64,000 nucleotides of DNA from a virus. Positions within the stretch are counted from its first letter, which is position 1; each line of letters starts with the position of its first letter. The stretch is from positions 11,761 through 75,760 of the IMG/VR virus record IMGVR_UViG_3300037493_002747; one strand, written 5' to 3'. This document shows, in pieces, positions 4,542-48,571 of this stretch. Position numbers and translations under genes: made by a program. Below the pieces are notes generated by a model, which saw only the letters and a program-made list of their open reading frames with translations, did not search any database and was not told the DNA's origin.

Positions 4542-4922
4542 ATGAGTCAGACCAAAGCGCAGCGCAAGAAACAACAAAAGTCGAAGTCGCGTGAGAAGCA
4601 GATCAAGAAAAACAGGAACATTCTGCGGAATGTTGCTGTAAAGAGATTCCGTCTTGATGTGCATATGGGGGATGATTGGAAGATTGGAGTACGACAGTGG
4701 TCCAATATTCAGCAGGTAGAAGCTCATAGAGTAGAAACTGAAGCTCGTCGTGCCAAGGGCGAGGAGATTCTGATGGGTCGGGTGGTTGATATGGCCATTG
4801 GCAATGGCAAGGTGATCTTGAACATTCCTGGAGCAACGCCAAAGCCAAAGGGTATGGCACCTGACAAGATCGCAGATGGTGCAAAGGCTTGGGATTGTGA
4901 GTACGATTCTGGCACCAAGTAA
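4542..4922 (+). CDS. hypothetical basic protein
   Basis: 126-aa ORF with GGGAG RBS. Confidence 0.75.
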   Translation: MSQTKAQRKKQQKSKSREKQIKKNRNILRNVAVKRFRLDVHMGDDWKIGVRQWSNIQQVEAHRVETEARRAKGEEILMGRVVDMAIGNGKVILNIPGATPKPKGMAPDKIADGAKAWDCEYDSGTK

Positions 4923-4978
4923 GAAACTCTGAAAATTTCTCCGTATTTTGCAGGGCGGTTGGCAATGTATGGATGTGC

Positions 4979-5196
4979 GGATGTTCTACTGAGGATTCGG
5001 GCGTTGTTATAGCAAACCGAGTCATTGGTTTAGCGGCCAACAAGACAGGGGCGTAAGGCGACAACGAAAAGTGGTTTAGCGGCCTCTCCCGAGTCTTCAG
5101 TAGAGCATCTGAGTGTGAGGCGATAAAGTGGGTTCAATTCCCATCAGTAGTAGGGTCAGCCCGAACCTGGGACGGTATGGATCGTGGCTTTACATG
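4979..5196 (+). ncRNA. structured ncRNA candidate with a 23-bp closing stem and a tRNA-like T-arm
   Basis: GGATGTTCTACTGAGGATTCGGG (4979-5001) pairs with CCCGAGTCTTCAGTAGAGCATCT (5088-5110) using only WC and GU pairs; duplicated GGTTTAGCGGCC; T-arm GTGGG-TTCAATT-CCCAT at 5128-5144. Confidence 0.55.
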
Positions 5197-5207
5197 TTCT
5201 TTGACAA
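5195..5207 (+). promoter_or_regulatory. boxA-like antitermination element TGTTCTTTGACAA
   Basis: Close to rrn boxA (TGCTCTTTAACA); lies directly before the rRNA-mimic RNA; similar TGTTCTTTGA at 6368 before the tmRNA. Confidence 0.5.
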
Positions 5208-5210
5208 TTT

Positions 5211-5567
5211 GAGACGAGTGATGGGTGGTAGGCTCAGAAGCAGCCATCCATAAAAAGTGAGTCGCTGAGTTCTAATCCGTGAGAGCCGCTGGAAAAGTGG
5301 CTAGTCGGATAGGCGAACAGAGATTGGGTAGGCGGGACGGGACCCGATGTCAGGACTTGTAGTGTTGTAGTCTAAAGCTGTAGATTTTTACGGCATAAAG
5401 TCTACTGTAGCTCAGTCTTGAGTGTACTGCTCTGTTGTGCGGCGTTAGAAGGTTGCGGCTTCCATGGAAGATGTAGAAAGTTCGTGTGGTTGACTTAGTA
5501 TCTTCCAAGGCCAAACTCAACTGCATGGTGGACTCTTTGGCGTAATAGCAAACCCATCACAAGTCTT
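5211..5567 (+). ncRNA. ncRNA mimicking the 23S rRNA uL11-binding/GTPase-associated centre (H42-H44), with a ~280-nt insertion
   Basis: H43-like TGGTAGGC-TCAGAAGCA-GCCATCCA-TAAAAAG (5226-5257) and H44-like GC-GTAATA-GC (5540-5549), closed by GTGATGGG/CCCATCAC; the insertion is closed by GAGTC/GACTC. Confidence 0.75.
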
Positions 5568-5571
5568 TTCT

Positions 5572-6260
5572 GGGATCAGTCGTGGAGCTAAGAATGTTAA
5601 AAACATTTGGACTAAGAAGCGACTCAAGTCATGGCTATGAAAGTGGGCCATGAGATTCCAGCGGACCATCAGCGAGCCGAATTACGCTGGGATGAAGCGA
5701 GTTGCAAAAGCGGCAAGCGGATTCCGAATAGAGTCGGTGGGATCGAGATCTGATTGGATTCGGTGGGTTCCTGTTCTGATTAGAGTAGTCTGATTAGATT
5801 CGGTGGGTTCCTGTTCTGATTAGAAGATCATCCCGTAAACTTGTGGTCCGGTCTTTTTTGAATCTCGTGATAACAGAAGTTAAATCTCCTGTAGTATGCC
5901 AAGTTGTATAGGTATAGGAGATTCTTATGCGGCAAGACGGTTTCTAAGCCCGTCTACGAGCATTTTTGTAGCATTGTGTGCAAACCCGACAGGAGAGGCA
6001 CACGACAAGCGCAGATAGAAAAGGCCGCTCATGGCTCGTGAATAGGGAAGAGAGAGGTCGTAGGGTGTACAACCGAAAACCCAATCTTGTCTAGCTTAGA
6101 TGGTGGAGGGTGACGGGGAAACCTGTCGCCCCTGACTCGAAAGGGCGTTCGTGGAAATCGAACTAGACCTGTGATGGCGACCGTAGCACCACAGAGACGA
6201 GTAGCAGGTCGAAATAAACGTGGATCGGTGACAGTCGGGAGAGTACCGACAACTTTTTTG
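5572..6260 (+). ncRNA. large (~680 nt) highly structured ncRNA candidate (GOLLD/ROOL size class, family unassigned)
   Basis: No credible ORF; nested long-range stems (5649-5658/5860-5869 and 5662-5668/5844-5850); many hairpins; ends in a hairpin plus U-tract. Confidence 0.55.
5749..5824 (+). repeat. tandem duplication of a 36-nt hairpin unit (40-nt period)
   Basis: TCTGATT(G/A)GATTCGGTGGGTTCCTGTTCTGATTAGA at 5749-5784 and 5789-5824, one mismatch. Confidence 0.9.
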
Positions 6261-6382
6261 TTAGGTTTTGCTGTCTGTGGGTATAATGACTCATGGAGAA
6301 AAGAAGTGTGTGATGATTTTTCTTCCGTATTTGACACGGAGTGTGGCAATGTAGTGTCAGATTTGATTGTTCTTTGATATAT

Positions 6383-6794
6383 GGGGACGAGTGGTTTCGA
6401 CGAGTGTTATTGAAACTGGTCGACATGCCGAGGACACAGGTGGGCCTCGTAAATCATCCTGTAAAAAAACAACTGCCAACACTTTTGGCAAGGTGATTCG
6501 TGGTTTCTTTGGAGTGGCTGCTGAGGCTACTCCGATGCTTGCCGCTGCCTAAACAGGCACACCTCCAAAACTCCGGAGTTTCTATGACAACCGGATGAGG
6601 ATCAAAGAGAATAGATGACGGTCTGCAAAGACAGGCGATGCCGGGAATGAGACGCACCGGGGCGGATAGTCGAAGACATCCCTGAAAGAAGGGATAGACC
6701 AAGTCCGTGGTCGAGAAACATCGTGACGAAGCATGTGTATGTTCAGTTGATTTATTATTCGGACAGGGGGTTCGACTCCCCCTCGTCTCCACCA
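6383..6794 (+). ncRNA. ssrA: tmRNA; tag ANTFGKVIRGFFGVAAEATPMLAAA encoded at 6475-6552
   Basis: 5' GGGGACG and 3' CGTCTCC-ACCA form an acceptor stem with G3-U; TTCGAC near the 5' end; T-arm GGGGG-TTCGACT-CCCCC; tag frame ends LAAA-stop. Confidence 0.95.
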
Positions 6795-6828
6795 TTTTCA
6801 GAGATAATGAGGAAAGTTTGAAAAAGTG

Positions 6829-6858
6829 TTGAAAACTTACTCGTTGTCGGAGTATAGT
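6829..6858 (+). promoter_or_regulatory. sigma70-like promoter (TTGAAA-18-TATAGT)
   Basis: Near-consensus hexamers just upstream of the first Y-RNA candidate. Confidence 0.45.
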
Positions 6859-6872
6859 GATTTGTGAACGAA

Positions 6873-6954
6873 GTCAGGCTCCTTCAGGACTGGGTTACTT
6901 CATTACAAAAGCGAAAAAATCTCGGCGGTCTATGAGGACCGAAATTGAGATGAC
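6873..6954 (+). ncRNA. candidate Y RNA (Ro60-associated), copy 1
   Basis: Shares the CCTTCAG..GGGTTACTTC..GAAAAA core and a bulged-stem fold with 7082-7146; near the Ro60 gene. Confidence 0.45.
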
Positions 6955-7081
6955 GATCTGCAAAGACAGAGTGGAATTCCGGGAAGACGGAATGGAGGCG
7001 TGGGAAGACACGCAAATGACAGCTCGGAAAGACGGCTTACCTAGGACGAATATCGGAGTTTGATGGAGTTCTTGAGTTTTT

Positions 7082-7146
7082 GCTTGATACCTTCAGTTTG
7101 GGGTTACTTCTTGGTGAAAAACCCCCAAACGATTATTGGTGTCGGC
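7082..7146 (+). ncRNA. candidate Y RNA (Ro60-associated), copy 2
   Basis: GATACC/GGTGTC stem, TTCA internal loop, GTTTGGGG/CCCCAAAC stem and a TTACTTC-containing apex; upstream of Ro60. Confidence 0.5.
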
Positions 7147-7154
7147 TATATTAT

Positions 7155-7231
7155 TGCGGGGTAGAGCAGCCCGGTAGCTTATCAGGCTCATAACCTGAAG
7201 GTCGCTGGTTCAAATCCAGCCCCCGCAACCA
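7155..7231 (+). tRNA. tRNA-Met(CAT), initiator-like
   Basis: 77-nt cloverleaf close to bacterial tRNA-fMet; anticodon loop CTCATAA; encoded CCA. Confidence 0.95.
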
Positions 7232-7236
7232 ATAAA

Positions 7237-7274
7237 GGCCGGACATCAATAAAAGGATGTTCGGCTTTTTCTTT
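7237..7274 (+). terminator. Rho-independent terminator after the tRNA
   Basis: GGCCGGACATC/GATGTTCGGCT stem followed by TTTTCTTT. Confidence 0.7.
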
Positions 7275-7380
7275 GTATCGAATCGTGTAGGTTCAATGTT
7301 CTGTGTGGAACATTGGGAATAAGGGTGCCGAAAGGCACAAAATTGGTGGTAGAGATATCACCTTCAAGGAGGTAAGAGAA

Positions 7381-9135
7381 GTGAATAAGGTAAAGAAGGT
7401 CGCAAGGAGTAGGGCTTCGGTAGCAAGTCTGCCGAGCAACGCAAAGGCCGCATCGGTAAACCGGGCGGGCGGAGTGGCATTCGAGGTAAATGATCCGGCA
7501 TTGAAGTTGATCACCATGACTGGTGGGTCTTTCTTCGCCGAGCCGAGGTTCTATAACGCAGAGGCATGTGTACCTAAGCGTGGGACTGGCGGTAAGTTCG
7601 AGAAGCTGGCAGCGAGGCTAGAGATCGTGGATGGCAAGCTGAAGGGCTTTGTCACCTGTGATGAGCTTCCTGAGACGGCTCGTGAGGTTATCGCAACGGC
7701 TATCGATGTCGCCAAGGGTAAGACCCCGGAGGACATGCTGGCAATCGCCAACTGGCTTCGTAATGAGATGAACATCCGGATGACCCCGCAGATTTTGCTG
7801 GTGTTGGCATCTCAGATGGATGGGACTAAGTCACTGGTTCGGAAGTATGCGACTCACATCGTGAAGCGTCCGGATGAGGTTAAGACCTGTCTGTTGACTC
7901 ATCGTTTTCTGTTCGGGCTGAAGAATCTCCCGAATGGCCTAGCGAGTGGATTGGCTGATGCTACGAGTAAGTTCGGTGAGCGTGGGTTGATGAAGTACGA
8001 CGACTCTGGCTTTCCGACTTGGAAGGACGTTCTTTGCTGGCTTCCGCGTAAGGCTGGATGGCCGCTGAGTGCTGAGGTCGCCAAGTATTTCATCACCGGC
8101 AAGATTGATGACCCGGCTAAGACTCCGATCATCGCGGCTCGTAAGGAGTTGGTGAAGAAGACTGTGTTCGATACCGAGGCTCGTGACCTGGCAAAGAAGT
8201 CCCAAGTCAACTGGGAGGTCTTGCTGTCTCAGTTCGGTAAGGAGAAGAACAAGGTGTGGTCGTTTCTGATCGACAACGGTCTGATTGGCTACATGGCTCT
8301 GCTCCGTAATCTGAAGAACATCTTGGAGGCGAAGGTTTCCAAGGGTGTCATTCAGAAGGTATCGGATAAGCTCTCGAACAAGGACGAGGTTGCCAAGTCA
8401 AAGCAGCTTCCGTTCAGGTTCCTGTCGGCAAAGACGGTATTGGATACTATGTCTAGTGGTTTCGATCTTGCGGACTACTCGGAGGTCGTGGCGGCTATTG
8501 AGTTGGCGGCAAATGAGGCATGTGCCAATATCCCGGTAATGTCGGGTGAGACCATGGTGTTTGCAGACAATTCTGGTTCGATGACGAGTGCAAAATTGTC
8601 GGAGAAGTCGGCACGGAACTGTCGTGATGCTGCAAATATGCTGTCTGGTATCGCCGCCAAGGTATGTGAGAGGCCGTACCTGTTCGCATTTGGATCGAGT
8701 CTTCAGGAGATTCGTTTTGCCAAGACGGATACCGTAATGGGTATCTGTGACAAGGTAAAGCGATCAGGGGACGGTGGTTCTACGAATGGTCACCTGTGCA
8801 TTGAGCATTTGATCAAGTCTGGGAAGACTCCGGCACGGGTTATCATCCTGACGGACTGTCAGATGTGGAATGATAACAGTAACGGTGGTGGTCAGCCGTT
8901 TGCGAATGCATGGGCGAAGTACCGGAAGTCAAGTAAGGCTGCGGCGGAGACTTGGCTTCATATCGTTCACCTTTCGGGATACGGGGATAGTCCAGTGGAT
9001 GTGGGAGAGAGGGTGAATCAGGTCTCTGGGTTCTCAGAGAAGGTATTCACATCGATCCTCACTGTCGAGGGAGTTATGGGATCTACTCCACTCCCTACGG
9101 TGGAGCAGGTAAGGAATGGGTGGACGGTGAAATAG
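7381..9135 (+). CDS. Ro60/Rsr-like RNA-binding protein (TROVE + vWA domains)
   Basis: NxAGG.AF, GYMALLRNL, KQLPFRFLSA, MIDAS DNSGSM and IILTD motifs; RBS AAGGAGGT at 7366-7373 before GTG. Confidence 0.9.
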   Translation: MNKVKKVARSRASVASLPSNAKAASVNRAGGVAFEVNDPALKLITMTGGSFFAEPRFYNAEACVPKRGTGGKFEKLAARLEIVDGKLKGFVTCDELPETAREVIATAIDVAKGKTPEDMLAIANWLRNEMNIRMTPQILLVLASQMDGTKSLVRKYATHIVKRPDEVKTCLLTHRFLFGLKNLPNGLASGLADATSKFGERGLMKYDDSGFPTWKDVLCWLPRKAGWPLSAEVAKYFITGKIDDPAKTPIIAARKELVKKTVFDTEARDLAKKSQVNWEVLLSQFGKEKNKVWSFLIDNGLIGYMALLRNLKNILEAKVSKGVIQKVSDKLSNKDEVAKSKQLPFRFLSAKTVLDTMSSGFDLADYSEVVAAIELAANEACANIPVMSGETMVFADNSGSMTSAKLSEKSARNCRDAANMLSGIAAKVCERPYLFAFGSSLQEIRFAKTDTVMGICDKVKRSGDGGSTNGHLCIEHLIKSGKTPARVIILTDCQMWNDNSNGGGQPFANAWAKYRKSSKAAAETWLHIVHLSGYGDSPVDVGERVNQVSGFSEKVFTSILTVEGVMGSTPLPTVEQVRNGWTVK

Positions 9136-11498: not shown

Positions 11499-11794
11499 TC
11501 TTCCCGTTTCAGTGTCAAAAATGTAGTAAGAGTTTTGATGAGGAGTTCCCGATAGGTAAAGCACCTCGCGTGACTCCTTGTCCTCATTGCAAGGGTAATG
11601 GCAAACGCATTTACGATGGAATGTGCGTTGCTGTTAAAATTGGAGGGGCATTTTGTCATTCGTCAACCTTTGGCGAACAGATGAAGGCCCGGAATATGCA
11701 GGCAGCGCAACGGATGAAGGGGCGTAAGGCCCCGGTACGACTAGCCGCAATGGATCATGGCGGTGGTGACGTACGTGAGGTGAAAGCAAAGTGA
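11495..11794 (+). CDS. FmdB-family zinc-ribbon protein
   Basis: F.CQKC...F.......CPHC pattern. Confidence 0.75.
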
Positions 11795-39070: not shown

Positions 39071-39125
39071 TTCCACAAGACCTGACGCATTGGTATATAA
39101 TGAGGTGGTATTGCTGGAGGTCTAT

Positions 39126-42100
39126 GTGGCTTTTGTAAGTATTGATTTGTCGAATTCTTTGGTTGTGCATGATGCCTACGAGCAAAGGACGGCTATTGCC
39201 GATCTTGGTGGGTATTGGGACGCCCAAAACAAGGCTTGGCGTATCGTATTCACGATTGCCAATTTGGAAGCACTCCTTGACGCTATTCCCGACATTTCAA
39301 CATCGGAAGACTTGGCTGTAAAGGTCAAGGATCAGATGGATAAGGAAGCCAAGCTGGAAAAACTTCGGGTGATGTCAAAGCAGGATACGCAGGTGTGTCT
39401 GCGTATTCCGGGTATGAAGCTTTCACTATACAACTACCAGCGGCTTGGCGTTATGTATGCGGCAACTAATCGTGTAGGACTATTGCTGGCGGATGAAATG
39501 GGACTAGGGAAAGGGACAACCATTGATAGCCAAGTATTTACGACTTTTGGAAAGGTTAGAATCGGATCGTTGAAGGTGGGCGACGAGGTAGTAGGCAAGG
39601 ATGGAAAACCTCATAACGTGATTGGAGTTTACCCCCAGGGAATGCGAGAAGTTTACCGTGTGTGGTTCAACGATGGGTTCTATCTTGACGTGGACAGTTC
39701 TCACTTATGGGAAGTAAGGTCTAACAACCAGCACAGCAAGGTGAGGAAAACGTCTGGGGTCGTCCTTTCGATGGAACAACTTCTGGACAAGGACGGTGTT
39801 GCGGAACGTGTCGGTGAAGGAAGGAATAGCGGTAAGACCTACAAGTTCAAAACCTACTACAAGAAAACGAACGGGAACAACTCATGGGGAATACCGATGG
39901 TTGACCCCATCCAGTTCGTACACCGCACCATAGACATAGACCCGTACCTCCTCGGAGTCTGGCTTGGCGATGGACATATTATGAAAACAGGGTATGTAAA
40001 CCTAGTAATGCTAAAGGCAGACCTTGCTGATATGAATGTTGGAGGCAAGATTGGAAGAGTAGACGCATCACACATGGAAGCTCGTCTTTTCAATACACAT
40101 AAACAGGAGTTGGTCAATCTTGGTTTGAACGGAAAGAGAGCTTGGGAGAAGTTTATACCTGATGACTATAAATACAATTCCGAAGAAGTTAGACTTGCGG
40201 TGATTCAAGGATTGATGGACACAGACGGACACGCATCGGATTGTGCGACCGAGTATTCGACCAGTTCTAAGCAGTTGTGCGACGATGTGGTTGAGATTGT
40301 GCAGACGCTTGGTGGTATCGCAAGGGTCAGGTCCAGGATTCCACGTTACTGGTATAAGGGAGTAAAGAAGACGGGAAGGACGAGTTACAGTGTCAATATC
40401 AAGTTGCCTCCTAGTATTGTTCCGTTCCGTCTACCAAGAAAGGTTGTGGACTATGATAAGTGTGACAAGTATAGTCCCGAGCGATACATTTGTAATATAG
40501 AAAAACTCGCAGAAAAGAAAGAAACGGTTTGCATCTCAGTCGATGCTCCTGACAATCTTTATGTCACGGAACATTGTATCGTTACCCACAACACCCTCCA
40601 GGCCATTGGTACAGCAATGTTCTTAAAGGCTTCGGATGGGGCGAAGAAGGCACTTATTGTTACGCCAGCATCACTCAAGTTTAACTGGCCATTGGAGATC
40701 GAGAAGTTTACAGATGAGAAGTACGTGGTCATTGATGGTACGCCGGATGAGAGAGTTGCGCAATGGCTTCGGGATGATGTGTTTTTCTATGTCGTCAATT
40801 TCGAGCTGTTACTGGAAGATTTGTTTGGAGGCAGGAAGTTCAGGGAGAAGAAGGGTGAGTCCGATGAGGACAGGCAGAGAAGGTTGGACAGGCATGAAAA
40901 GATTTCTACTAAAGCGAAACAGAGGCGGGGGATACTGACGACAGTTAGGAATAGGGTATGGGATGTAATAGCGGTGGATGAATGTTTTCCGTATGGAACG
41001 ATGATCGAAACGGATAAAGGACGGATGAGTATTGGAGATGTCGTATCTCAAAAATTGCCAGTGTCCGTTTTGTCTTGTGATTTTTCAAGGAATGTGTCAT
41101 CGTATCGACGTGTTGTTAGATGGATGGAAAAATCTATGTCTGGACACCTCGTGGAGGTGACGCATGAAAGAGGAAGTTTTGTCTGTACTTGGAATCACAA
41201 AATCTGGACAGATGAATGGGGATATATCAAAGCGGGTGAAGCCACGAAGTATGGTGAAGCGCATTTGCGAGTTTTGCCATCACGAGTTCGATGCACCTCG
41301 CAAGGGGAAGTCAACACCGAGATTTTGTTCGGTGGTTTGTTCCGGAAGATTCAGACAGATGTGTCAGGACACCGTGGCGAAACAAGTGGCAGCAAGAACG
41401 ATGCCAAAGATAGTGTTCAATTGTATGGAATGCGGTCGAGAGTTTGTGGTCAGGACGACAAAAGAGCAGGAGAGGAGATTTTGTTCGAGGAGGTGTGTGG
41501 CGATCTGGAGGTCAAAAACAGAGGATCGGAAAGACAGAATGTTGAAGATGCAGGTGGCCTGCGGGTTAGTAACGAAGGGAAAGCCGAATCTGAGATTCTC
41601 CAAGTTTATGACAGAGAAGAATCAAGACCCGGTATTCCGACAGAAGGTGATGGAGGGGGCAGCAAAGTGGAGGGAGACACATCCATCATTTCTTGTGAGG
41701 GGCGGGAAACCATTCATAACGAAGCCGCAGAGATTGTTGGCGGAAGCTCTTGGAGAAGAATGGGAGATGGAATACAAGGTCTCCGACAAGAGAATGGCAG
41801 ATGTGTTGGTGAGTCCACCTCGGTTCTATCAGATAGACATTGCAAATGTGGGAATGAAGATTGCTGTAGAGGTGGACGGAAGAACCCACAGGATGACGAA
41901 GTGGAAGATAATCGATGCTCGGAAGGAGAAGGCTTTGTCTTATCTCGGTTGGAAAGTATTAAGGTTCTGGAACGAAGAGATTTTGAAAGACTTGGACTTG
42001 GTAGTCCGGAAAATCTCCGAGTCTATAATCTCGAAGTAGAAGCTGATACGGACGACGATCATTGTTATGTTGCTGATGGTGTCCTAGTTTCTAATTGTCA

Positions 42101-43082
42101 AGCACTCAAGCATCATTCGTCCACCCGGACTCAGAATGTGCTGAACTTAAAGGCCAAGTGTCGTATGGCTTTAACAGGGACTCCGATGGATGGAAGGCTT
42201 GAGGAATTGCACAGTTTGATGCAGTTTGTGGCTCCCGGACTTCTCATGTCCAAGACTCGGTTTTTTCAGAGGCATGTTGAGACGGACTTTTGGGGTAGGG
42301 TGACTGGGTACAAGAGAATGGGAGAGGTATCTCAGAAGATTCAACAGTTCTTTCTTCGCAGGTTGAAGAGGGACGTTTTGAAGGACTTACCGGACAAGGT
42401 TTATGAGAATCGGCTAGTGTCCTTGACGGCTGAAGAACACAAAATTTACAAGGCTCTGGCGGAGCAAGGGCATGAGGCGACAGAAGATGTTTTGGCAGTA
42501 GTTTCAGTTATTCGTTGTAAGCAGTTTTGTAATTATCCTCAGATGGTGGATGCGTCGTGTACGACAACGTCAAAGATGGATTCCTTCAGAGAGGTTCTGG
42601 ATGAGGTTGTGGTCCAGAATGGTCATAAAGCATTGGTGTTCAGTCAATACAAAGAAATGCTGAATATCCTTGTCCCTGAATTGGAGAAGATGGGTATAAA
42701 GTACATGAGGATCGACGGAGACACTCCTCCAATAGAGCGGGCTTCGATGCAGAAGAAGTTCAATGAGGATAAAAGTCTTGATGTGATGATTGGAACTGAG
42801 GCTATGTCAACAGGGCTGAATTTCCAGTCAGCGGATTATGTTATCAACTATGATGACAATTGGTCTCCGGCTATTATGGCGCAACGTGAAGATAGGTGTC
42901 ACAGGAATGGGCAGAGGAATGTGGTTACGGTAGTGAACTTCATTTGTAGAGACACGATTGAAGAACGTATCCGTGGAGTCATCTACGCGAAGAACAGGGT
43001 TACGGCACAAGTCCTTGGAGATGAGACTGATGATATGGTCTTGAGAAGACTTGGTCCAAAAGATGTTTGTCAGTTGTTGTGA
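39126..43082 (+). CDS. SNF2-family helicase containing two inteins
   Basis: LLADEMGLGK/T, DE/CQ, LTGTP, LRRLK.DV, QREDRCHR.GQ motifs; GGAGG before GTG 39126. Confidence 0.9.
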   Translation: MAFVSIDLSNSLVVHDAYEQRTAIADLGGYWDAQNKAWRIVFTIANLEALLDAIPDISTSEDLAVKVKDQMDKEAKLEKLRVMSKQDTQVCLRIPGMKLSLYNYQRLGVMYAATNRVGLLLADEMGLGKGTTIDSQVFTTFGKVRIGSLKVGDEVVGKDGKPHNVIGVYPQGMREVYRVWFNDGFYLDVDSSHLWEVRSNNQHSKVRKTSGVVLSMEQLLDKDGVAERVGEGRNSGKTYKFKTYYKKTNGNNSWGIPMVDPIQFVHRTIDIDPYLLGVWLGDGHIMKTGYVNLVMLKADLADMNVGGKIGRVDASHMEARLFNTHKQELVNLGLNGKRAWEKFIPDDYKYNSEEVRLAVIQGLMDTDGHASDCATEYSTSSKQLCDDVVEIVQTLGGIARVRSRIPRYWYKGVKKTGRTSYSVNIKLPPSIVPFRLPRKVVDYDKCDKYSPERYICNIEKLAEKKETVCISVDAPDNLYVTEHCIVTHNTLQAIGTAMFLKASDGAKKALIVTPASLKFNWPLEIEKFTDEKYVVIDGTPDERVAQWLRDDVFFYVVNFELLLEDLFGGRKFREKKGESDEDRQRRLDRHEKISTKAKQRRGILTTVRNRVWDVIAVDECFPYGTMIETDKGRMSIGDVVSQKLPVSVLSCDFSRNVSSYRRVVRWMEKSMSGHLVEVTHERGSFVCTWNHKIWTDEWGYIKAGEATKYGEAHLRVLPSRVRCTSQGEVNTEILFGGLFRKIQTDVSGHRGETSGSKNDAKDSVQLYGMRSRVCGQDDKRAGEEILFEEVCGDLEVKNRGSERQNVEDAGGLRVSNEGKAESEILQVYDREESRPGIPTEGDGGGSKVEGDTSIISCEGRETIHNEAAEIVGGSSWRRMGDGIQGLRQENGRCVGESTSVLSDRHCKCGNEDCCRGGRKNPQDDEVEDNRCSEGEGFVLSRLESIKVLERRDFERLGLGSPENLRVYNLEVEADTDDDHCYVADGVLVSNCQALKHHSSTRTQNVLNLKAKCRMALTGTPMDGRLEELHSLMQFVAPGLLMSKTRFFQRHVETDFWGRVTGYKRMGEVSQKIQQFFLRRLKRDVLKDLPDKVYENRLVSLTAEEHKIYKALAEQGHEATEDVLAVVSVIRCKQFCNYPQMVDASCTTTSKMDSFREVLDEVVVQNGHKALVFSQYKEMLNILVPELEKMGIKYMRIDGDTPPIERASMQKKFNEDKSLDVMIGTEAMSTGLNFQSADYVINYDDNWSPAIMAQREDRCHRNGQRNVVTVVNFICRDTIEERIRGVIYAKNRVTAQVLGDETDDMVLRRLGPKDVCQLL
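39513..40592 (+). mobile_element. intein 1 (360 aa): class 3-type, Gly at position 1, LAGLIDADG endonuclease, inserted in Walker A
   Basis: GLGK|GTT...HLW...VCISVD...VTHN|T; LLGVWLGDG and IQGLMDTDG. Confidence 0.9.
40983..42095 (+). mobile_element. intein 2 (371 aa) inserted in Walker B, ending SN
   Basis: DE|CF..GT...CTWNH...VYNLEV...YVADGVLVSN|C. Confidence 0.9.
41164..42039 (+). CDS. Vsr/DUF559-type (PD-(D/E)xK) endonuclease with two zinc-ribbon repeats, overprinted in the +1 frame of intein 2
   Basis: CEFC..FCSVVC, CMEC..FCSRRC, IDIA....IAVEVDG.TH and D..K...L...GWKVLRFWN motifs; SD GGAGGTGA at 41153-41160. Confidence 0.85.
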   Translation: MKEEVLSVLGITKSGQMNGDISKRVKPRSMVKRICEFCHHEFDAPRKGKSTPRFCSVVCSGRFRQMCQDTVAKQVAARTMPKIVFNCMECGREFVVRTTKEQERRFCSRRCVAIWRSKTEDRKDRMLKMQVACGLVTKGKPNLRFSKFMTEKNQDPVFRQKVMEGAAKWRETHPSFLVRGGKPFITKPQRLLAEALGEEWEMEYKVSDKRMADVLVSPPRFYQIDIANVGMKIAVEVDGRTHRMTKWKIIDARKEKALSYLGWKVLRFWNEEILKDLDLVVRKISESIISK

Positions 43083-47276: not shown

Positions 47277-47374
47277 AATATGTATTGACGATGTTCGTTG
47301 CGAATGATAGTGTACACTTTGTTTTAGGCCATATTGGCCATATATGTCGATTTTCGACGAAAACAAGGAGGCGT

Positions 47375-48571
47375 ATGATTGGGCAAACTGGGCAAAATTT
47401 AGGCATTTCTGTTCGCGACAAGATTCAAGCAATCAAATCTTCTGGTAAAAGTTCAGAACCTTATTCCTCTGCATCTGCAATCCTAGCGATTCGAGCAATC
47501 AGGAATGACGTACTTAAAGGTTCAAAACCTTGTTCTGTCATAGGTGTTACTGATCCACCTGTAGTCATTTCCGTTCGTGATAAGATTAAAGCAATCACTG
47601 CTGCTGGCAAAGGTTCAAAACCTTCTGATTTTCCTGTATGTGTTTCCATCATAGACGGTATTCGATCACTCACGAATACTGTGATCAAAGGGTCAAAACC
47701 TTGTGCTGTTGTACCTCCAACTGTCAATACGCATAAGGTTACTGTAGCTCCTCCAACTCCTCCAACTGTCAATACGCATAAGGTTCCAGATAGTCAGAAG
47801 CTTGAACTTGTTAAGCAACTTGGCAAGTCGAATGCGGACAATCTTGGGACTGTAATTGTTGCGACTCCATTGGCAGATGACGATAAGGATGTCGAACTAA
47901 CGCGGGACCAGATGGCAGTAGCTGTGGCTCGTGATATGTCTGGAGTCAAACCTCTTTCAGAAAAGGATCGTATTCGGTACAACCGGATGTTGTATGATTC
48001 GATTCATGACTTGGTCTATCAGCGGGCGTCTCGATACCATACGACTTGTCCCGACGAGTCTGTTGATGACCTTTCGCAAGAGTGTATGTATCAACTTATG
48101 AGGAAACTACACGGATTCGATCCTAAGAGAGGTGCCTTCTCGACTTGGTCGTGGCATGTCTGCAAGGCAACGTTGAATAGGAAGTATCGAAAAGGCAAGC
48201 GAGATAGAAACGTCATTGTGAGTGGCCATTTTGTGAATGAAGATGGTGAAAGCACGCTGGAGAACAATCCTAAGCAACTTATTGAGGGTGTACAGACACA
48301 CGAATGCCCTGGAGTTCTGGCATCAGAGATGATGACTGCTGTAAGGGAGTTAGTTGAAAAACACCCTAGGGAGAAGCATCTTCTCTTAGAGATATTCGGA
48401 AACCCAGATTCGGAAGATTTTGTTATGCCGAGCTATGTCTGTGTGGCAAAATCTGCAAAGGCTGTTGGGATGAAATACAGTCAGGCTCAGTTCTTTTTCA
48501 AAAAGGTAGTCCGACCGTTCATGTGGAGTAAGTTTATGGGGGGTGATAATGACAACGACATTGTGGACTAA
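47375..48571 (+). CDS. RNA polymerase sigma-factor-like protein with N-terminal repeats
   Basis: Sigma region 2 pattern DDL.QE....L..FDP.RG.FSTW; AAGGAGG RBS. Confidence 0.65.
   Translation: MIGQTGQNLGISVRDKIQAIKSSGKSSEPYSSASAILAIRAIRNDVLKGSKPCSVIGVTDPPVVISVRDKIKAITAAGKGSKPSDFPVCVSIIDGIRSLTNTVIKGSKPCAVVPPTVNTHKVTVAPPTPPTVNTHKVPDSQKLELVKQLGKSNADNLGTVIVATPLADDDKDVELTRDQMAVAVARDMSGVKPLSEKDRIRYNRMLYDSIHDLVYQRASRYHTTCPDESVDDLSQECMYQLMRKLHGFDPKRGAFSTWSWHVCKATLNRKYRKGKRDRNVIVSGHFVNEDGESTLENNPKQLIEGVQTHECPGVLASEMMTAVRELVEKHPREKHLLLEIFGNPDSEDFVMPSYVCVAKSAKAVGMKYSQAQFFFKKVVRPFMWSKFMGGDNDNDIVD

Follow-up and report, generated by a model that had tools for sequence, protein, structure and literature searches.

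The GTPase-associated centre (GAC) of 23S ribosomal RNA (rRNA) is among the most conserved and best-studied RNA domains: uL11 binds there, EF-G, EF-Tu and RelA make contact with it, and both thiopeptide antibiotics and at least one rRNA-modifying toxin target it. L11 contacts the U1060-A1088 pair of this domain and also binds isolated, even heterologous (yeast), fragments of the GTPase-associated region (GAR), and thiostrepton binds the cleft between the two loops together with the L11 N-terminal domain (PMC2175356). An A-minor triple, G1055=C1104/A1085, is located at the top of helix 42 (H42) (PMC1919483). The 64-kb stretch of DNA analysed here (the window; positions 11,761 to 75,760 of the IMG/VR virus record IMGVR_UViG_3300037493_002747) contains, on its + strand at 5211-5567, an RNA of about 357 nt, the mimic RNA, whose ends fold in our secondary structure model into a self-closed replica of the GAC comprising the top of H42, H43 and H44.

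When compared with the bacterial 23S GAC (E. coli 1051-1108, the 58-nt fragment that binds uL11 and thiostrepton), the mimic RNA shows the same order of elements and a near-identical sequence. By blastn, positions 5231-5248 match E. coli 23S 1062-1079 at 17 of 18 bases and positions 5540-5549 match 1091-1100 at 10 of 10 bases, with both half-sites in the same order as in E. coli 23S. Each half-motif occurs once in the 64 kb, versus 0.01 occurrences expected from shuffled sequence. The original prediction for this DNA, made from the letters alone, was that both 23S half-motifs (H43 and the H44 hairpin) are copied here; the two alignments bear this out at 17/18 and 10/10 bases, and the motifs that it quoted are present where it placed them, with the correction that U1066 is C in the window. 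Its claim that no other rRNA sequence is nearby also holds: the large-subunit rRNA model RF02541 has no match in the 75.8-kb record while matching 13 of 14 control genomes, and the rest of the 2.4-kb non-coding block around the mimic RNA has no resemblance to E. coli 23S by blastn.

The outermost element is a helix between GAGAC (5211-5215) and GTCTT (5563-5567), and a comparable extension of the stem is found in two close relatives, L121 (GGAC/GTCC) and L134. Inside it lies the closing helix, in which GTGATGGG (5218-5225, the top of H42, approximately 1048-1055) forms eight Watson-Crick pairs with its complement CCCATCAC (5553-5560, approximately 1104-1111); the part of it that corresponds to the 58-nt fragment is 1051-1055/1104-1108. 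Both the 8-bp closing helix and its outer extension had been predicted correctly. The H43 copy, with the loop CAGAAGCA (C-AGAAGCA), spans 5226-5250 and equals 1057-1081; it is followed by the junction strand TAAAAAGT (5251-5258, equal to 1082-1090), in which the A-rich segment that makes A-minor contacts with the top of H42 is retained. A multi-helix inserted domain of 277 nt comes next (5259-5535), closed by GAGTC/GACTC. The prediction had placed a folded insert of about 280 nt at 5258-5538 with the same closing pairs; the folded domain stands, and its size and limits are corrected here. The remaining elements are a TTTG linker (5536-5539), the H44 hairpin copy GCGTAATAGC (5540-5549, equal to 1091-1100) and an AAA linker (5550-5552, equal to 1101-1103), such that the TTTG and H44 motif together read TTTGGCGTAATAGCA at 5536-5550. 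The whole mimic RNA folds better than shuffled versions of itself (z = -2.97).

The window copy retains U1060, G1071, C1072, the A-stretch at 1084-1086 and the 1091-1092/1099-1100 pairs of 23S rRNA. Unlike its ribosomal counterpart, it lies outside any rRNA gene and carries the 277-nt domain between 1090 and 1091, ahead of TTTG and H44, so that the distance from GCCAT to GCGTAA is 292 nt rather than the 12 nt of rRNA. It differs from bacterial 23S further in having A1101 in place of U1101, together with C1066, A1087, A1102 and a junction shorter by one base, and the stem below the site has no similarity to 23S H42.

This arrangement is shared by many phages. An IMG/VR pattern scan for the H43 loop, from which we defined the family, returned at least 118 stretches, a few of which are chance coding matches; more than 100 IMG/VR phage loci share both the frame and the point of insertion, and almost none of the stretches is real rRNA. 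In the common layout, 73-351 nt of variable sequence follow GCCATC..TAARGAGT; next come TTTGGCGTAAYAGCACA and a segment complementary to the bases 5' of H43. The H43 loop of the family reads UUAGAAGCA, and the insert is followed by TTTG and GCGUAAYAGCA. Across 28 aligned members, 96% of cells conform to the proposed pairing and 105 carry double changes, a result reached by none of 500 shuffles; when pairing partners are slid, only 25-52% of cells are paired. The closing helix covaries across the family, with double changes at seven of the seven pairs counted, as do the pairs 1057:1081 and 1058:1080, with which the U-A, G-C and G-C stem pairs of the window's H43 agree. Positions 1082 and 1086 also change together (U with A, C with G). 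That the two halves pair and covary in homologues, the opposite of which the prediction had named as a result that would refute it, is thus found both in the 28-member alignment and in the alignment of close relatives described below.

A covariance model (R1), built from eight other family members over 153 positions, finds the window copy at 5216-5358 with 43 bits (E about 3e-10), its only strong match there, and scores the genuine E. coli site at 55 bits. The H44 half (5534-5549) is recovered as a second match of 13.8 bits; the two halves score separately because R1 cannot bridge the 277-nt insert. In the R1 alignment the junction strand lacks one base and has A for the G1087 of the family. 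Searches with Rfam 15, at the gathering score and at E values up to 10, gave nothing over 5211-5567, GOLLD and ROOL included, and at the gathering score nothing was found over the family elements in 15 other loci. We found no description of a GAC-mimic family in Rfam 15 or in the literature searched, and neither rRNA nor L11 is mentioned in a 2017 survey of 224 motifs. The family is a large, widespread and apparently undescribed group of phage RNAs.

Several features of the family are fixed differences from bacterial 23S rRNA: the insertion between U1090 and G1091, the TTTG, and A1101. The four bases of the TTTG hallmark before G1091 are T, T, T and G in 46, 46, 45 and 44 of 48 canonical members, and A1101 is present in 48 of 48, where bacterial 23S sequences have U. 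In the H44 loop of canonical members, G1093, U1094, A1096 and A1098 are invariant and A1095 is present in 47 of 48, while 1097 varies; this loop lay outside the search pattern. The elements are usually set within arrays of tRNA genes: a tRNA or transfer-messenger RNA (tmRNA) lies within 1 kb, always on the same strand, in 77 of the 119 pattern matches listed (a few of which are chance coding matches), with a median distance to the nearest such gene of 158 nt among these matches. A scan of bacterial assemblies with a 17-position pattern gave 106 stretches, about as many as expected by chance, and only 13 had the H43 half upstream. These 13 true elements include two in cultured strains, Flintibacter muris DSM 110149 and Clostridiaceae strain 9.

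Taken together, these observations suggest to us, with a probability of roughly 55%, that the mimic RNA is a stable, untranslated phage RNA that presents a replica of the GAC away from the ribosome, acting as a decoy or a handle for uL11 or for a factor that recognises the GAC. In this scheme the RNA would probably be excised from a longer, boxA-containing transcript of a 2.4-kb RNA island, would capture host uL11 and would thereby show the A1067/A1095 face off the ribosome. Capture of uL11 is the most likely mechanism because the isolated rRNA domain folds alone and binds both uL11 and thiopeptides. Two outcomes can be envisaged from there: the loaded replica could compete with ribosomes for a ligand of this face, such as RelA, a translational GTPase or a GAC-directed toxin of the Tre23 kind, or the uL11-bound frame could serve as a handle by which the inserted domain is delivered or stabilised. 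With regard to such factors, the toxin Tre23 ADP-ribosylates H44 at 1095-1098 and blocks the GTPase activity of EF-G (PMC8661411), and RelA activity depends on the GAC region (PMC5829649). L7/L12-domain proteins that enter ribosomes are common in phage genomes (bioRxiv 10.1101/174177). A more specific version, which we offer tentatively, is a countermeasure in which the uL11-loaded replica soaks up an effector, of the host or of a competitor, that attacks or senses the GAC (a Tre23-like or other rRNA-modifying toxin, or RelA), in which the insert adds a second binding activity, and in which the RNA is boxA-antiterminated. Were it true, translation would keep running during infection, and the mimic RNA would be the first trans-acting decoy of an rRNA domain.

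The closest relatives of the window copy were identified by a search with the neighbouring Ro60 protein, which gave eight related loci, and by a metagenome scan with an insert-derived pattern, which gave one further relative, L134. L121 has a Ro60 that is 82% identical and shows 77% identity to the window over 4961-5649; L122 and L123 have a Ro60 that is 67% identical and a mimic RNA with the window's insert. The set comprises four distinct sequences (the window, L121, L134 and L122/L123/L135), which is to say that three distinct relatives share the insert. RNAalifold predicts 54 pairs in the insert from these four sequences, 12 of them with compensatory changes, and 95% of cells in the insert alignment are paired versus 35-47% with partners slid, the structure being derived from the same sequences. 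Within IMG/VR, insert-derived patterns recovered only the three known relatives and a chance coding match (L132). The insert is specific to this clade, because nhmmer with the window insert finds no match in about 230 other loci. The core of the mimic RNA is 79-87% conserved between these phages. Core and insert modules together are 75-88% identical between relatives, while two variable hairpins are only 34-49% identical; because core and insert are equally conserved while the two hairpin regions vary, both look selected. The insert also has unpaired motifs that are conserved within the clade, and the closing helix varies among its members (GTGATGG/CCATCAC, CGTGAGGG/CCCTTACG, GCAGGGG/CCTTTGC). 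L122 has a canonical frame, GGAATGTTGGCTTAGAAGCAGCCA ... TAAGGAGTG ... TTTGGCGTAATAGCACAC, with an extra insertion after 1077, and the window insert is homologous to that of L122. As judged from these alignments, the window copy is a divergent member of the GAC-mimic family.

This divergence is among the points that weigh against a functional GAC replica in this clade. The window core has C1066, where all 41 canonical members counted have U, an invariance that is partly imposed by the search pattern; more generally, the invariance of the H43 loop across the family is in part an artefact of that pattern. A search for the C1066 variant (followed by ATC) matched no other IMG/VR contig. The window core furthermore has, at the pair that closes H44, A1087, where 39 of 41 members have G, and A1102, where 46 of 48 have C (this double change is also seen in L069), and it has one base fewer in 1082-1083 together with a one-base register change at G1056/A1103. 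The closest relatives, L121 and L134, carry A1070G, a change that could affect tertiary folding or uL11 binding in the clade. No uL11 or L12 domains were found in the available phage fragments (five related records), and no obvious partner is encoded there. Finally, the insert is strongly conserved, which suggests that there is a functional part besides the mimic frame.

That the window copy departs from several positions that are otherwise invariant in the family is also what speaks for regarding it as a functionless relic, a piece of host 23S rRNA that was captured, carries a junk insertion and is decaying. We consider such an origin scarcely credible. Compensatory changes preserve every helix, conservation of the core is still 79-87% where the variable hairpins of the same phages are down to 34-49% identity, and the differences of the family from rRNA (A1101, TTTG, the insertion point) are fixed. 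We also considered and rejected the possibility that mimics track their hosts: in two bacterial assemblies the mimic lacks the peculiarities of the resident 23S H43, and recent capture from the host is unlikely for this reason.

The inserts raise a different question, since they differ completely between family members (73-351 nt) while the frame is constant. Among the forms observed, the most compact is a 53-nt GAC copy with no insert (L013:3716-3768). A second insertion site, in the 3' strand of H43 after 1077 or 1078, is used in L092, L077, L045, L063, L048, L098, L107 and L122. One locus, L049, has two complete mimics (at 5137 and 5455) that are 318 nt apart and have different inserts, and in L176 the 3' half-motif occurs twice (4320 and 5362), with the H43 half confirmed upstream for only one. 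A subfamily of inserts (L025, L052, L058, L065, L096, L008, L029, L070 and others) shares GTGCGAAATG ... TGATGTGCCG, possibly a k-turn-like module; this motif is absent from the window insert. In L072 and L109, which have the same sequence, the insert contains a hairpin resembling the sarcin-ricin loop about 257 nt after GCCAT (CCUCGC U AGUACGAAAGGA GC GCGAGG, with a 6-bp closing stem), and the second half of the ribosomal factor-binding site may thus be copied as well in these loci. The window, its insert included, contains no copy of the sarcin-ricin loop.

One could read this diversity as meaning that the insert is the functional part and that the GAC copy is a stable, perhaps uL11-coated, folding clamp or protective handle with no decoy role, by analogy with the tRNA scaffolds that stabilise cargo RNAs. 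The complete variation of the inserts around a constant frame fits this idea (the window's insert is present in no other locus of the wider family), as do the two copies with different inserts in some phages (L049), an insert in the clade that matches the core in conservation, with unpaired motifs retained as well, and the drift of the core within the clade (U1066C, with A1070G in relatives). Nevertheless, we think it unlikely. The insert-less L013 exists, from which it follows that the frame can stand alone; the exposed A1095, A1096 and A1098 are kept although a mere clamp would not need them; and the sarcin-ricin-like hairpin in the L072/L109 insert points to imitation of the whole factor-binding site.

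The genomic setting of the mimic RNA is that of a large phage. Its source is a 75.8-kb IMG/VR record with a CheckV completeness of 23%, that is, a fragment of such a phage; for related records of 125 and 144 kb the ratings are 50% and 67%. The genes of the window lie on the + strand, with a strong GC skew, and its proteins include a collagen-like fibre protein, DnaB, a primase, a sigma factor and RecA; a match to the tail-tube family PF18906 is weak (E 1e-4, under Pfam's cut-off). We note that an SNF2-family helicase at 39090-43082 (+) is split by an intein with Hint and LAGLIDADG domains, and that a sigma-factor-like protein is encoded at 47285-48571. The mimic RNA is contained in a 2.4-kb block with no credible open reading frames (ORFs), located between the ORF at 4542-4922 and the ORF at 7303-9135. 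The same block contains, on the + strand, a tmRNA (6383-6794) and a tRNA-Met (7155-7231). A strong terminator-like hairpin (7234-7269) separates the tRNA-Met from the gene at 7303-9135 (+), which encodes a Ro60/Rsr orthologue of 610 amino acids (Pfam TROVE 1.6e-21, Ro60 vWA 1e-7) and ends the RNA island; it starts 1.7 kb downstream of the mimic RNA. When the non-coding block was compared by blastn with 50,697 phage records, the tRNA-Met was the sole match. An RNA ligase domain (PF09414, E 2.4e-35) is found about 16.8 kb upstream of the mimic RNA, outside the window (G000:C1:150-608), and no RtcB domain was found in the available phage fragments. Taken purely as context, the presence of tmRNA, Ro60 and an RNA ligase in the same record fits a theme of protecting the translation apparatus.

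Directly 5' of the mimic RNA, at 5195-5210 (+), is a boxA-like leader, TGTTCTTTGACAATTT, that equals the boxA of the E. coli rrnH leader, TGCTCTTTAACAATTT, at 14 of 16 positions. BoxA recruits NusB/S10, by which untranslated rrn transcripts are antiterminated. In the 64 kb, TGTTCTTTGAYA has just one further exact copy, at 6368-6379, immediately 5' of the tmRNA, and the repeat extends into the first ten bases of both the mimic RNA and the tmRNA (GACGAGTG). The boxA before the mimic RNA is kept in L121, L122 and L134, and that before the tmRNA in L121 and L122; these sites included, rrn-type boxA (TGTTCTTTGAYA) stands a few bases before stable RNAs at 300 and 4181 in L121 and at 953, 1284, 1704 and 3016 in L122. 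Across the rest of the family, only 5 of 113 loci have a boxA-like site within 150 nt upstream. A scan for sigma-70 promoters found no site before the mimic RNA, and a TTGACA at 5202 was rejected as a promoter, as it is part of boxA and has no -10 element after it. We infer that the island would be transcribed in the manner of an rRNA operon, with the mimic RNA cut from a longer transcript so that its 5' end lies near 5211. A 30-nt repeat (TCCGTATTT..TGGCAATGTA, 80% identical) is present at the start of the island (4940-4969) and before the tmRNA unit (6324-6353), and these two copies may be two promoters, possibly of a non-sigma-70 type.

An upstream boxA, together with the classical precedent of mRNA leaders that mimic rRNA, could be taken to mean that the mimic RNA acts in cis, as a leader or attenuator that senses free uL11 or another ribosomal protein (r-protein) and controls a downstream gene. 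The downstream sequence makes this highly improbable. On the + strand there is no ORF of at least 50 amino acids for 600 nt after the mimic RNA; the next ORFs, of 68, 51, 61 and 68 amino acids, lie at 6171-7063, and two of them overlap the tmRNA. The first convincing gene is that of Ro60 at 7303, and the features that come before it are RNAs. Family members sit between tRNA genes, and no r-protein gene is present in the available fragments.

The closure of the island by a Ro60 gene raises the further possibility that the RNA of this clade works with the phage Ro60, as its partner or as its client; it might, for instance, resemble a Y RNA and tether Ro60 and an exonuclease to uL11 or rRNA fragments. 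The order mimic RNA, tmRNA, tRNA-Met and Ro60 is kept in the three relatives that have flanking sequence, and genes for Y RNAs normally lie no more than 4 kb from that of Ro60, on its strand (PMC4201824). We consider this role improbable all the same, as there is no Ro60 relative in the flanks of the approximately 118 other family loci among the matches listed, and L124-L126, more distantly related phages with Ro60, lack a mimic within 5 kb. The mimic RNA (5211-5567) itself lacks a T-arm as well as a conserved GNCGAA(N)G motif: GGCGAACAG at 5312 misfits this consensus and is not conserved in L121. Better Y-RNA candidates are found in the island at 4975-5175 and 6866-7146.

The first of these, at 4975-5175 (+), is a conserved structured element upstream of the mimic RNA, with 77% identity in L121. 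Its T-arm-like hairpin (GGGTTCAATTCCC) contains two compensatory pairs, a long stem joins 4984-5001 to 5088-5106, and neither ARAGORN nor Rfam calls the element. We regard it as a candidate Y-RNA-like or tRNA-like RNA for Ro60. At 6866-7146, a pair of Y-like RNAs would fit the repeat pair 6881-6901/7090-7110 (CCTTCAG..GGGTTACTTC), which, together with the repeats 6613-6634/6948-6969, links the body of the tmRNA with the stretch between tmRNA and tRNA-Met. Ro60 orthologues themselves are present in the eight related IMG/VR loci at 50-82% identity, most of them behind a tRNA-Met and several also behind a tmRNA. Elsewhere in the island, at 5723-5824, there are three tandem copies of a 36-nt unit (TCTGATTRGATTCGGTGGGTTCCTGTTCTGATTAGA), spaced by 26 and 40 nt, in a region that is not conserved in L121.

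What is new in the window is the insert common to three relatives, the departures of the core, the boxA before both the mimic RNA and the tmRNA, and the 2.4-kb island that ends at Ro60. The original prediction was right about the structure of the element, and the function that it proposed (titration of uL11 or stalk proteins, translational GTPases or RelA-type sensors, or absorption of toxins directed at rRNA) is putative; it missed the large family, the conserved insert, the core departures, and the boxA and RNA island with tmRNA and Ro60. If the mimic RNA is indeed an off-ribosome decoy or handle, a family of free-standing phage copies of the GAC would represent a new viral route into translation control or ribosome-directed defence. 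Such RNAs, natural and compact, could also be used to titrate uL11 or GAC-binding factors in cells. The family would in addition be a large natural mutational data set on the GAC fold, with covariation at 1057:1081, 1058:1080 and 1082:1086, A/A as a substitute for the 1087:1102 pair, and two sites at which insertions are tolerated.

To our knowledge, neither GOLLD nor ROOL imitates rRNA. These RNAs are comparable to the mimic RNA in that they too are large structured phage RNAs that adjoin tRNA genes and are perhaps co-transcribed with them (PMC5737381). The Y RNAs (YrlA/YrlB) likewise are modular, mimic an RNA of translation (tRNA) and are encoded near Ro60, in phages among others (PMC4201824). 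They are 80-130 nt long, with D- and T-arm mimics and a Ro60-binding stem, whereas the mimic RNA copies rRNA and most members of its family have no Ro60 in their neighbourhood. The pseudo-ToxI of phage phiTE is a phage RNA that neutralises a host protein by imitating a host RNA (PMC3475682); what it imitates is an antitoxin repeat and not a part of the ribosome. The leaders of r-protein operons (L10, L1, L20) share with the mimic RNA the principle of an off-ribosome RNA that imitates the r-protein site of rRNA. They are, however, short and partial mimics that act in cis directly before an r-protein gene, whereas the mimic RNA is a near-complete, self-closed domain that has no downstream gene and is found in phages among stable RNA genes.

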